From Escherichia coli (lineage in GTDB: Bacteria > Pseudomonadota > Gammaproteobacteria > Enterobacterales > Enterobacteriaceae): a stretch of 64,000 nucleotides of DNA. The translations under genes were made by a program, and so were the position numbers. The stretch lies in the NCBI RefSeq assembly GCF_003334785.1, contig NZ_QOWV01000001.1; one strand, given 5' to 3'. The stretch's first letter is position 1. Each line of letters opens with the position of its first letter. A model generated the notes under the pieces. That model ran no database searches. It was not told the origin of the DNA and was given only the letters and a program-made list of their open reading frames with translations. Below, piece by piece: positions 8,057 to 34,382 of the stretch.

Positions 8057-9400
8057 GTGAGCAATCTGTCGCTCGATTTTTCGGATAATACTTTTCAACC
8101 TCTGGCCGCGCGTATGCGGCCAGAAAATTTAGCACAGTATATCGGCCAGCAACATTTGCTGGCTGCGGGGAAGCCGTTGCCGCGCGCTATCGAAGCCGGG
8201 CATTTACATTCTATGATCCTCTGGGGGCCGCCGGGTACCGGCAAAACAACTCTCGCTGAAGTGATTGCCCGCTATGCGAACGCTGATGTGGAACGTATTT
8301 CTGCCGTCACCTCTGGCGTGAAAGAGATTCGCGAGGCGATCGAGCGCGCCCGGCAAAACCGCAATGCAGGTCGCCGCACTATTCTTTTTGTTGACGAAGT
8401 TCACCGTTTCAACAAAAGCCAGCAGGATGCATTTCTGCCACATATTGAAGACGGCACCATCACTTTTATTGGCGCAACCACTGAAAACCCGTCGTTTGAG
8501 CTTAATTCGGCACTGCTTTCCCGTGCCCGTGTCTATCTGTTGAAATCCCTGAGTACAGAGGATATTGAGCAAGTACTAACTCAGGCGATGGAAGACAAAA
8601 CCCGTGGCTATGGTGGTCAGGATATTGTTCTGCCAGATGAAACACGACGCGCCATTGCTGAACTGGTGAATGGCGACGCGCGCCGGGCGTTAAATACGCT
8701 GGAAATGATGGCGGATATGGCCGAAGTCGATGATAGCGGTAAGCGGGTCCTGAAGCCTGAATTACTGACCGAAATCGCCGGTGAACGTAGCGCCCGCTTT
8801 GATAACAAAGGCGATCGCTTTTACGATCTGATTTCCGCACTGCATAAGTCGGTACGTGGTAGCGCACCCGATGCGGCGCTGTACTGGTATGCGCGAATTA
8901 TTACCGCTGGTGGCGATCCGTTATATGTCGCGCGTCGCTGTCTGGCGATTGCGTCTGAAGACGTCGGTAATGCCGATCCACGGGCGATGCAGGTGGCAAT
9001 TGCGGCCTGGGATTGCTTTACTCGCGTTGGCCCGGCGGAAGGTGAACGCGCCATTGCTCAGGCGATTGTTTACCTGGCCTGCGCGCCAAAAAGCAACGCT
9101 GTCTACACTGCGTTTAAAGCCGCGCTGGCCGATGCTCGCGAACGCCCGGATTATGACGTGCCGGTTCATTTGCGTAATGCGCCGACGAAATTAATGAAGG
9201 AAATGGGCTACGGGCAGGAATATCGTTACGCTCATGATGAAGCAAACGCTTATGCTGCCGGTGAGGTTTACTTCCCGCCGGAAATAGCACAAACACGCTA
9301 TTATTTCCCGACAAACAGGGGCCTTGAAGGCAAGATTGGCGAAAAGCTCGCCTGGCTGGCTGAACAGGATCAAAATAGCCCCATAAAACGCTACCGTTAA
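8057..9400 (+). CDS. rarA: Replication-associated recombination protein A (AAA+ ATPase)
   Basis: 447 aa, GTG start; Walker [10 protein letters not shown], Walker [11 protein letters not shown]. Confidence 0.95.
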
Positions 9401-20357: not shown

Positions 20358-20393
20358 AATAAAAAAGCGGCAACTCAATAAAGTTGCCGCTTT
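20358..20393 (-). terminator. Intrinsic terminator of pflA (structurally bidirectional, also follows ycaK)
   Basis: agcggcaac-tcaataaa-gttgccgct 9-bp stem; T-run on the minus strand (plus A-run 20360-20365), TTT on plus side. Confidence 0.75.
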
Positions 20394-32057: not shown

Positions 32058-33731
32058 ATGACTGAATCTTTTGCTCAACTCTTTGAAGAGTCCTTAAAAG
32101 AAATCGAAACCCGCCCGGGTTCTATCGTTCGTGGCGTTGTTGTTGCTATCGACAAAGACGTAGTACTGGTTGACGCTGGTCTGAAATCTGAGTCCGCCAT
32201 CCCGGCTGAGCAGTTCAAAAACGCCCAGGGCGAGCTGGAAATCCAGGTAGGTGACGAAGTTGACGTTGCTCTGGACGCAGTAGAAGACGGCTTCGGTGAA
32301 ACTCTGCTGTCCCGTGAGAAAGCTAAACGTCACGAAGCCTGGATCACGCTGGAAAAAGCTTACGAAGATGCTGAAACTGTTACCGGTGTTATCAACGGCA
32401 AAGTTAAGGGCGGCTTCACTGTTGAGCTGAACGGTATTCGTGCGTTCCTGCCAGGTTCTCTGGTAGACGTTCGTCCGGTGCGTGACACTCTGCACCTGGA
32501 AGGCAAAGAGCTTGAATTTAAAGTAATCAAGCTGGATCAGAAGCGCAACAACGTTGTTGTTTCTCGTCGTGCCGTTATCGAATCCGAAAACAGCGCAGAG
32601 CGCGATCAGCTGCTGGAAAACCTGCAGGAAGGCATGGAAGTTAAAGGTATCGTTAAGAACCTCACTGACTACGGTGCATTCGTTGATCTGGGCGGCGTTG
32701 ACGGCCTGCTGCACATCACTGACATGGCCTGGAAACGCGTTAAGCATCCGAGCGAAATCGTCAACGTGGGCGACGAAATCACTGTTAAAGTGCTGAAGTT
32801 CGACCGCGAACGTACCCGTGTATCCCTGGGCCTGAAACAGCTGGGCGAAGATCCGTGGGTAGCTATCGCTAAACGTTATCCGGAAGGTACCAAACTGACT
32901 GGTCGCGTGACCAACCTGACCGACTACGGCTGCTTCGTTGAAATCGAAGAAGGCGTTGAAGGCCTGGTACACGTTTCCGAAATGGATTGGACCAACAAAA
33001 ACATCCACCCGTCCAAAGTTGTTAACGTTGGCGATGTAGTGGAAGTTATGGTTCTGGATATCGACGAAGAACGTCGTCGTATCTCCCTGGGTCTGAAACA
33101 GTGCAAAGCTAACCCGTGGCAGCAGTTCGCGGAAACCCACAACAAGGGCGACCGTGTTGAAGGTAAAATCAAGTCTATCACTGACTTCGGTATCTTCATC
33201 GGCCTGGACGGCGGCATCGACGGCCTGGTTCACCTGTCTGACATCTCCTGGAACGTTGCAGGCGAAGAAGCAGTTCGTGAATACAAAAAAGGCGACGAAA
33301 TCGCTGCAGTTGTTCTGCAGGTTGACGCAGAACGTGAACGTATCTCCCTGGGCGTTAAACAGCTCGCAGAAGATCCGTTCAACAACTGGGTTGCTCTGAA
33401 CAAGAAAGGCGCTATCGTAACCGGTAAAGTAACTGCAGTTGACGCTAAAGGCGCAACCGTAGAACTGGCTGACGGCGTTGAAGGTTACCTGCGTGCTTCT
33501 GAAGCATCCCGTGACCGCGTTGAAGACGCTACCCTGGTTCTGAGCGTTGGCGACGAAGTTGAAGCTAAATTCACCGGCGTTGATCGTAAAAACCGCGCAA
33601 TCAGCCTGTCTGTTCGTGCGAAAGACGAAGCTGACGAGAAAGATGCAATCGCAACTGTTAACAAACAGGAAGATGCAAACTTCTCCAACAACGCAATGGC
33701 TGAAGCTTTCAAAGCAGCTAAAGGCGAGTAA
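32058..33731 (+). CDS. rpsA: 30S ribosomal protein S1
   Basis: 557 aa; six tandem S1 RNA-binding repeats; strongly biased codon usage. Confidence 0.97.
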
Positions 33732-33741
33732 TTCTCTGACT

Positions 33742-33772
33742 CTTCGGGATTTTTATTCCGAAGTTTGTTGAG
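33742..33772 (+). terminator. Candidate terminator after rpsA
   Basis: cttcgg-gatttttatt-ccgaag 6-bp stem followed by TTTGTTGAGTTT; weak structure. Confidence 0.4.
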
Positions 33773-33890
33773 TTTACTTGACAGATTGCAGGTTTCGTCC
33801 TGTAATCAAGCACTAAGGGCGGCTACGGCCGCCCTTAATCAATGCAGCAACAGCAGCCGCTTAATTTGCCTTTAAGGAACCGGAGGAATC

Positions 33891-34175
33891 ATGACCAAGT
33901 CAGAATTGATAGAAAGACTTGCCACCCAGCAATCGCACATTCCCGCCAAGACGGTTGAAGATGCAGTAAAAGAGATGCTGGAGCATATGGCCTCGACTCT
34001 TGCGCAGGGCGAGCGTATTGAAATCCGCGGTTTCGGCAGTTTCTCTTTGCACTACCGCGCACCACGTACCGGACGTAATCCGAAGACTGGCGATAAAGTA
34101 GAACTGGAAGGAAAATACGTTCCTCACTTTAAACCTGGTAAAGAACTGCGCGATCGCGCCAATATTTACGGTTAA
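33891..34175 (+). CDS. ihfB: Integration host factor beta subunit
   Basis: 94 aa [33 protein letters not shown]... Confidence 0.96.
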
Positions 34176-34201
34176 GTTTTTTACTCAAACTTGAACGAGA
34201 G

Positions 34202-34227
34202 AAAAGCACCTGTCGGGTGCTTTTTTC
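34202..34227 (+). terminator. Intrinsic terminator of ihfB
   Basis: agcacc-tgtcg-ggtgct hairpin followed by TTTTTT, 27 bp after the ihfB stop. Confidence 0.8.
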
Positions 34228-34382
34228 ATTTCTCTAATCTGGAACTGGAAGCTGCCTCGCAGAGTTTTGAACAGTTTTCACCCTTTCGTTAAATTCTTCT
34301 GAATATGCCTCGGGGAACGCAAAATTCCCACCAGACAACCGCTCAACAAAGTTGCACACTTTCCATAAACAGGGAGGGGTGC

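Follow-up and report, generated by a model that had tools for sequence, protein, structure and literature searches.

Stem-loops at the extreme 5' end of an mRNA, such as those of the ompA and papA leaders, reportedly stabilise the transcript, and are said to have been described as such by Emory, Bouvet and Belasco in 1992. At the 3' end, intrinsic terminators are recognised by a G-C-rich stem-loop followed by a U-tract, and leaky members of this class lie within operons. A further class comprises stable stem-loops devoid of U-tract with a steady-state 3' end immediately downstream, where Rho terminates further along and the hairpin merely shields the trimmed end (Dar and Sorek 2018, PMC6061677). 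For the hairpin in the rpsA-ihfB spacer of Escherichia coli, a literature search retrieved no paper dissecting the element or the coincidence of a transcription start site (TSS) with its stem base; public datasets already list its 3' end, fold and TSS.

We examined this hairpin within a window, i.e. the whole 64,000-nt stretch of E. coli DNA that was analysed. The window genes cmk, rpsA, ihfB and ycaI are the same as in E. coli K-12; their identities were checked against the MG1655 annotation, and window positions were converted into NC_000913.3 positions by adding 929937. The features of the locus are as follows.

32058-33731, + strand: rpsA coding sequence (ribosomal protein S1), from the open reading frame and annotation; the stop codon ends at 33731.
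33742-33763, + strand: first hairpin of the rpsA 3'UTR, terminator-like with a U-rich tail, from scan and fold.
33778-33806, + strand: ihfB promoter as read from the sequence, with -35 TTGACA (33778-33783), a 17-bp spacer and -10 TGTAAT (33801-33806).
33784-33808, + strand: inverted repeat that forms the third hairpin of the rpsA 3'UTR RNA and takes up the spacer and -10 element within the ihfB promoter (fold, -13.3 kcal/mol, z -7.6).
33814-33837, + strand: the RNA hairpin under study, a 10-bp stem with 7 G-C pairs in its core and a UACG tetraloop, from sequence and fold.
33814-33815, + strand: main ihfB TSS, the first base of the stem, from three TSS datasets.
33838-33842, + strand: a group of mapped RNA 3' ends with 33840 (MG1655 963777) as the main position, from Term-seq, TRS and SMRT-Cappable-seq.
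33862, + strand: second, weaker ihfB TSS, 3' of the hairpin (Cappable-seq 963022 (v2), RRS 112).
33891-34175, + strand: ihfB coding sequence (IHF beta subunit), from the open reading frame and annotation; ATG at 33891.
34199-34228, + strand: canonical ihfB intrinsic terminator, used for comparison, from the scan; Term-seq 3' end 964165 corresponds to 34228.

The first-pass annotation had described a perfect 9-bp stem at 33815-33836 without a following T-run, and these claims were borne out along with the distance that it gave to the ihfB start codon. The inner nine pairs read aagggcggc-tacg-gccgccctt, 54 nt lie between this stem and the ATG, and a tenth pair formed by T33814 and A33837 extends the stem. 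The 12 nt 3' of the hairpin are aatcaatgcagc; counted from the G-C core the tail is UUAAUCAAU, with 4 U in 9 positions and a longest run of 2, and counted from the full stem it is AUCAAUGCA, so that the U-tract of an intrinsic terminator is lacking. The UUAAUCAAU tail is AU-rich and unpaired in the predicted fold. The G-C-rich stem-loop of an intrinsic terminator is present, as the 22 nt have a predicted RNA fold of -18.8 kcal/mol, which becomes -21.1 kcal/mol in a 33-nt context (z-scores -4.2 and -5.5). None of 200 shuffles of the hairpin folded as stably, and its energy was likewise reached by 0/200 shuffles of the 159-nt rpsA-ihfB spacer. Perfect hairpins with a stem of at least 9 bp were about ten times commoner in the 64-kb window (18 listings at 11 loci) than in shuffles (1.4 +/- 1.4), most of them being obvious terminators. 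Further perfect hairpins of at least 9 bp without a T-run after them were seen at window positions 8101-8124, 20364-20393, 57611-57634 and 63304-63333. An Rfam search at a permissive E-value returned no family for the hairpin, the sole overlap being a partial PhrS match whose 16.8 bits fall short of the gathering score, 37.

In the predicted fold of the entire 109-nt rpsA 3'UTR (33732-33840), four hairpins follow one another (-49.9 kcal/mol, z -7.5). The first, 11 nt past the rpsA stop, consists of CTTCGGGATTTTTATTCCGAAG followed by TTTGTTGAG with a tail to 33772, and an RNA 3' end at it is absent from all three 3'-end datasets. The third, GATTGCAGG-TTTCGT-CCTGTAATC, has a counterpart in Citrobacter werkmanii (L006) that is a perfect 10-bp palindrome, and Enterobacter sp. 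Ag1 (L004) carries a different inverted repeat at the same place, between TTGTAT and TATAAA; this repeat may function as an operator, or else as a hairpin in the RNA of the rpsA 3'UTR. Besides, a TAATCAA direct repeat stands on both sides of the hairpin under study (33803-33809 and 33836-33842).

A dominant RNA 3' end lies just past this hairpin in published maps. Term-seq recorded 963777 (+) with 9,925 reads in LB at OD 0.4 and 5,221 in M63 (Adams et al. 2021, PMC7815308), which is comparable to the ihfB terminator in the same study (8,916 and 2,842 reads, respectively). The end is absent from the LB OD 2.0 list (PMC7815308), a stage at which rpsA transcription is low, and this stationary-phase absence fits with falling rpsA transcription and not with an origin at the ihfB promoter. 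Its Rho score of 1.34 places it outside Rho regions, so that it is Rho-independent by published data, and its intrinsic-terminator score is 14.4 where the threshold is 3 (PMC7815308). The TRS study found peaks at 963776-963779 and classed them as a terminus of rpsA inside its transcription unit, drew the same stem (-21.1), counted only 2 U, and gave R = 0.97-0.99 on a scale on which an R of 0 denotes full read-through (PMC10687069). In SMRT-Cappable-seq (PMC6131387), 109 reads from TSS 961720 end at 963777, 67 read past it and 9 stop within 50 bp, and from TSS 961861 38 end there and 15 read past; 963777 is labelled 'novelTTS' and rpsA|ihfB read-through variants are present. As these full-length primary reads join the rpsA promoters to 963777, the 3' end was assigned to rpsA-promoter transcripts, of which about 60-70% stop at 33840 and the remainder enter ihfB.

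The distance to the main 3' end is 3 nt if measured from the full stem and 6 nt if measured from the G-C core, compared with 8 nt at the ihfB terminator, and the ends at 33839-33842 lie 5-8 nt past the core and 2-5 nt past the extended stem, where about 7-9 is expected of an intrinsic terminator. The proposal that the hairpin is something other than a terminator is not supported in view of a dominant, Rho-insensitive rpsA 3' end with such an intrinsic-terminator score, and we infer that the 33840 ends arise from termination rather than from cleavage and trimming.

The same hairpin marks the beginning of another transcript. Kim et al. (2012) mapped the ihfB TSS to 962974 (U00096.2), i.e. window 33814, with a 5'UTR of 77 nt; Cappable-seq placed it at 962975 (v2), i.e. 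33815, with an RRS of 365; and SMRT-Cappable-seq contains a transcript from 963751 to 964164 that covers ihfB alone (PMC6131387). The TTGACA-17-TGTAAT promoter lies upstream of the hairpin at a position that agrees with the mapped TSS, and it is kept in 9 of 11 Enterobacteriaceae spacers and in the group of E. coli, Citrobacter and Kluyvera. A consensus promoter scan of the spacer found none, as it requires an A at the second -10 position, where TGTAAT has a G. The first-pass annotation had assigned ihfB a promoter of its own in the spacer, and the three TSS datasets together with these elements confirm it. It had also called for TSS mapping, and its reading would have failed had the hairpin lain untranscribed upstream of all ihfB TSSs; the published maps instead put the main start at the first base of the stem, a coincidence unnoticed earlier, and the hairpin is transcribed. 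As the promoter is upstream of the hairpin and transcription starts at 33814/33815, the ihfB mRNA begins with the stem, within the ~0-2 nt of the primary 5' end that defines a 5'-terminal stem-loop.

The second TSS precedes the ihfB ATG by 29 nt, and the transcripts that start there do not carry the hairpin, which shows that ihfB is not reliant on the hairpin-capped transcript alone. No recognisable -10 or -35 was seen for this TSS, which lies 8 nt 3' of CAACAGCAG (33848-33856), a stretch opposite which every non-Escherichia spacer shows an alignment gap. A sigma-38 'ihfBp2' is mentioned in the literature.

Conservation across enterics, another check that had been suggested, revealed a conserved structure. 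Each of the 5,426 complete E. coli genomes contains the region, and 4,756 carry an exact copy of a 60-nt probe centred on the hairpin; a single non-identical variant was inspected, and its change is at 33845, outside the stem. Among 11 Enterobacteriaceae spacers, AGGGCGGCT(A/T)CGGCCGCCCTT is invariant and the flanks are divergent. One dominant hairpin was present in each rpsA-ihfB spacer (60-182 nt) of 33/33 Enterobacterales species, and in Yersinia, Rahnella and Budvicia, where the spacer is 60 nt, it stands directly 3' of the rpsA stop codon. These 33 hairpins comprise 24 distinct sequences, each stem position is occupied by 3-6 canonical pair types, G-U included, and UNCG or GNRA tetraloops make up 20 of the 33 loops. 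In 21 of the 24 distinct hairpins the sense strand has the more stable fold, and in none does the antisense. The covariation count (100% pairing) is partly circular as each hairpin was chosen as the best of its spacer, and the shuffle test serves as independent control: observed energies were matched by only 7 of 6,600 shuffles of the 33 spacers. Across the order, then, pairing is retained as the sequence changes, along with G-U pairs and RNA tetraloops, and these comparisons indicate that what is under selection is a structure of the sense-strand RNA rather than a DNA operator. Apart from the hairpin, a ACGGTAGTT(T/A)AG motif is conserved between it and the ihfB Shine-Dalgarno in Enterobacterales outside Enterobacteriaceae (loci L017, L019, L022-L027, L031-L033 and L042).

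The outgroups Aeromonas, Vibrio, Halopseudomonas and Pseudoalteromonas possess a canonical A-tract/stem/U-tract terminator after rpsA, whose core in Aeromonas (GGGCGGC/GCCGCCC) is the same as that of the E. coli hairpin. The tail in close relatives of E. coli is U-richer (UUGUUUAAU) than its UUAAUCAAU. From these comparisons, the E. coli hairpin appears to descend from the intrinsic terminator of rpsA, the U-tract of which would have decayed within Enterobacterales.

Taken as a whole, we regard it as probable that the hairpin plays a dual role, acting as a leaky terminator and 3' barrier for rpsA and as the 5'-terminal stem-loop of a monocistronic ihfB mRNA, the role being set by where transcription began. 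For transcripts from the rpsA (and cmk) promoters, the hairpin would form the end of the rpsA mRNA as a leaky Rho-independent terminator with a decayed U-tract, stopping the larger share of them and letting the others proceed into ihfB, and on the rpsA mRNA so formed it may act as a barrier against 3' exonucleases. For transcripts from the ihfB promoter, the monocistronic mRNA would open with the stem and no unpaired 5' nucleotide, and a 5' end capped in this manner should impede RppH and 5'-end-dependent RNase E, as in leaders of the ompA/papA type. By analogy with those leaders, the stem may thereby stabilise the ihfB mRNA.

The main rival to the terminator reading is processing, in which RNase E would cut the AU-rich single strand 3' of the stem in an rpsA-ihfB co-transcript and PNPase or RNase II would trim the product back to the hairpin, thus uncoupling a stable rpsA mRNA from the ihfB portion. 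The lack of a U-run and the 3-nt spacing between stem and 3' end, which speak against the dual role, are also compatible with exonuclease trimming, the UUAAUCAAU tail offers an AU-rich, unpaired target, and most 5'UTR 3' ends that are neither Rho-dependent nor intrinsic have been ascribed to processing by Adams et al. (PMC7815308). However, the high intrinsic-terminator score, the canonical terminators at the same position in the outgroups and the U-richer tail retained in relatives (UUGUUUAAU) all argue for termination, and we hold processing to be a rather unlikely origin of the 3' end and the uncoupling of the two messages to be just as doubtful. Of the two functions proposed by the first-pass annotation, RNA processing would lead to the same 3' end and is a possible if rather unlikely route to it; protein binding to the DNA found no support in view of the order-wide sequence divergence with kept pairing.

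The dual role also admits an extension. With transcription from the ihfB promoter starting on the first base of a hairpin that works as a terminator, the RNAs made from this promoter may be terminated as well, at +26/+27, giving a tiny hairpin-only RNA and a self-attenuating promoter, in which case read-through and not initiation would set the IhfB output. We consider this decidedly unlikely. The signal of the ihfB TSS relative to the main rpsA promoter is 365 vs 319 in short-read Cappable-seq and 32 vs 337 in full-length SMRT data, a difference that is a hint and not evidence, as size selection disfavours the 413-nt transcript and confounds the comparison.

Termination by Rho downstream, with the hairpin merely shielding a trimmed 3' end, is very improbable even though the site matches the definition of the class (PMC6061677). 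The 3' end is flagged 'No' for a Rho termination region (PMC7815308) in keeping with its low Rho score, the 50 nt downstream hold 12 C and 12 G with no rut-like bias, the translated ihfB frame begins 51 nt from the 3' end, and a third of the transcripts run through ihfB to its own terminator. We give equally little credence to a DNA palindrome bound by a dimeric regulator or by IHF at ihfB promoter positions +1 to +24. The 22 nt invariant in the 11 Enterobacteriaceae amid variable flanks would suit such a site, as would the flanking TAATCAA repeats, the left copy of which is a one-mismatch IHF consensus (33804-33816), but IHF-like matches occur in the window at chance level (60 vs 53 expected), and this site was dropped as evidence. 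Across the order, pairing is kept despite sequence change, the G-U pairs and tetraloops favour the sense strand, and the hairpin is also found in species without the ihfB promoter block. An antisense-strand or DNA cruciform reading was rejected on the G-U pairs, the tetraloops and the sense/antisense energies.

The favoured reading of a leaky terminator that doubles as a 5' stem-loop implies that one short spacer sets the ratio of a very abundant ribosomal-protein mRNA to a co-transcribed IHF beta message. This would be achieved by a weakened terminator passing about one third of the transcripts, along with a dedicated ihfB promoter placed upstream of that same terminator. One RNA structure serving as the 3' end for rpsA and the 5' cap for ihfB would be a tidy natural example. 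Nothing in this challenges current understanding, as each component can already be found, with its map position, in public datasets.

Among the known systems, the hairpin resembles REP/BIME elements in being a G-C-rich intergenic palindrome without U-tract, but it lacks the REP consensus, and such a repeat was rejected because the hairpin is single-copy (over 5,426 genomes, the median number of places per genome is 1). With the stem-loops of Dar and Sorek 2018 (PMC6061677) it shares stability, the absence of U and a precise steady-state 3' end right after the stem; unlike the Rho-dependent class, it shows no detectable dependence on Rho, it is not followed by a C-rich, G-poor segment, and a translated gene follows within 51 nt. 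The likeness to leaky intrinsic terminators within operons extends to the G-C-rich stem-loop, the 3' ends a few nucleotides downstream, Rho insensitivity and partial termination with the downstream gene still co-transcribed, and the orthologues outside Enterobacterales are canonical members of the intrinsic class; the differences are the UUAAUCAAU tail and a 3' end 6 nt from the G-C core instead of about 8. As in the 5' stabilising stem-loops of ompA and papA, nucleotide +1 or +2 of the primary transcript is already the first of the stem, with no single-stranded 5' segment, whereas the 5' stem of ihfB, to which stabilisation is ascribed by analogy, doubles as the terminator of the upstream gene.
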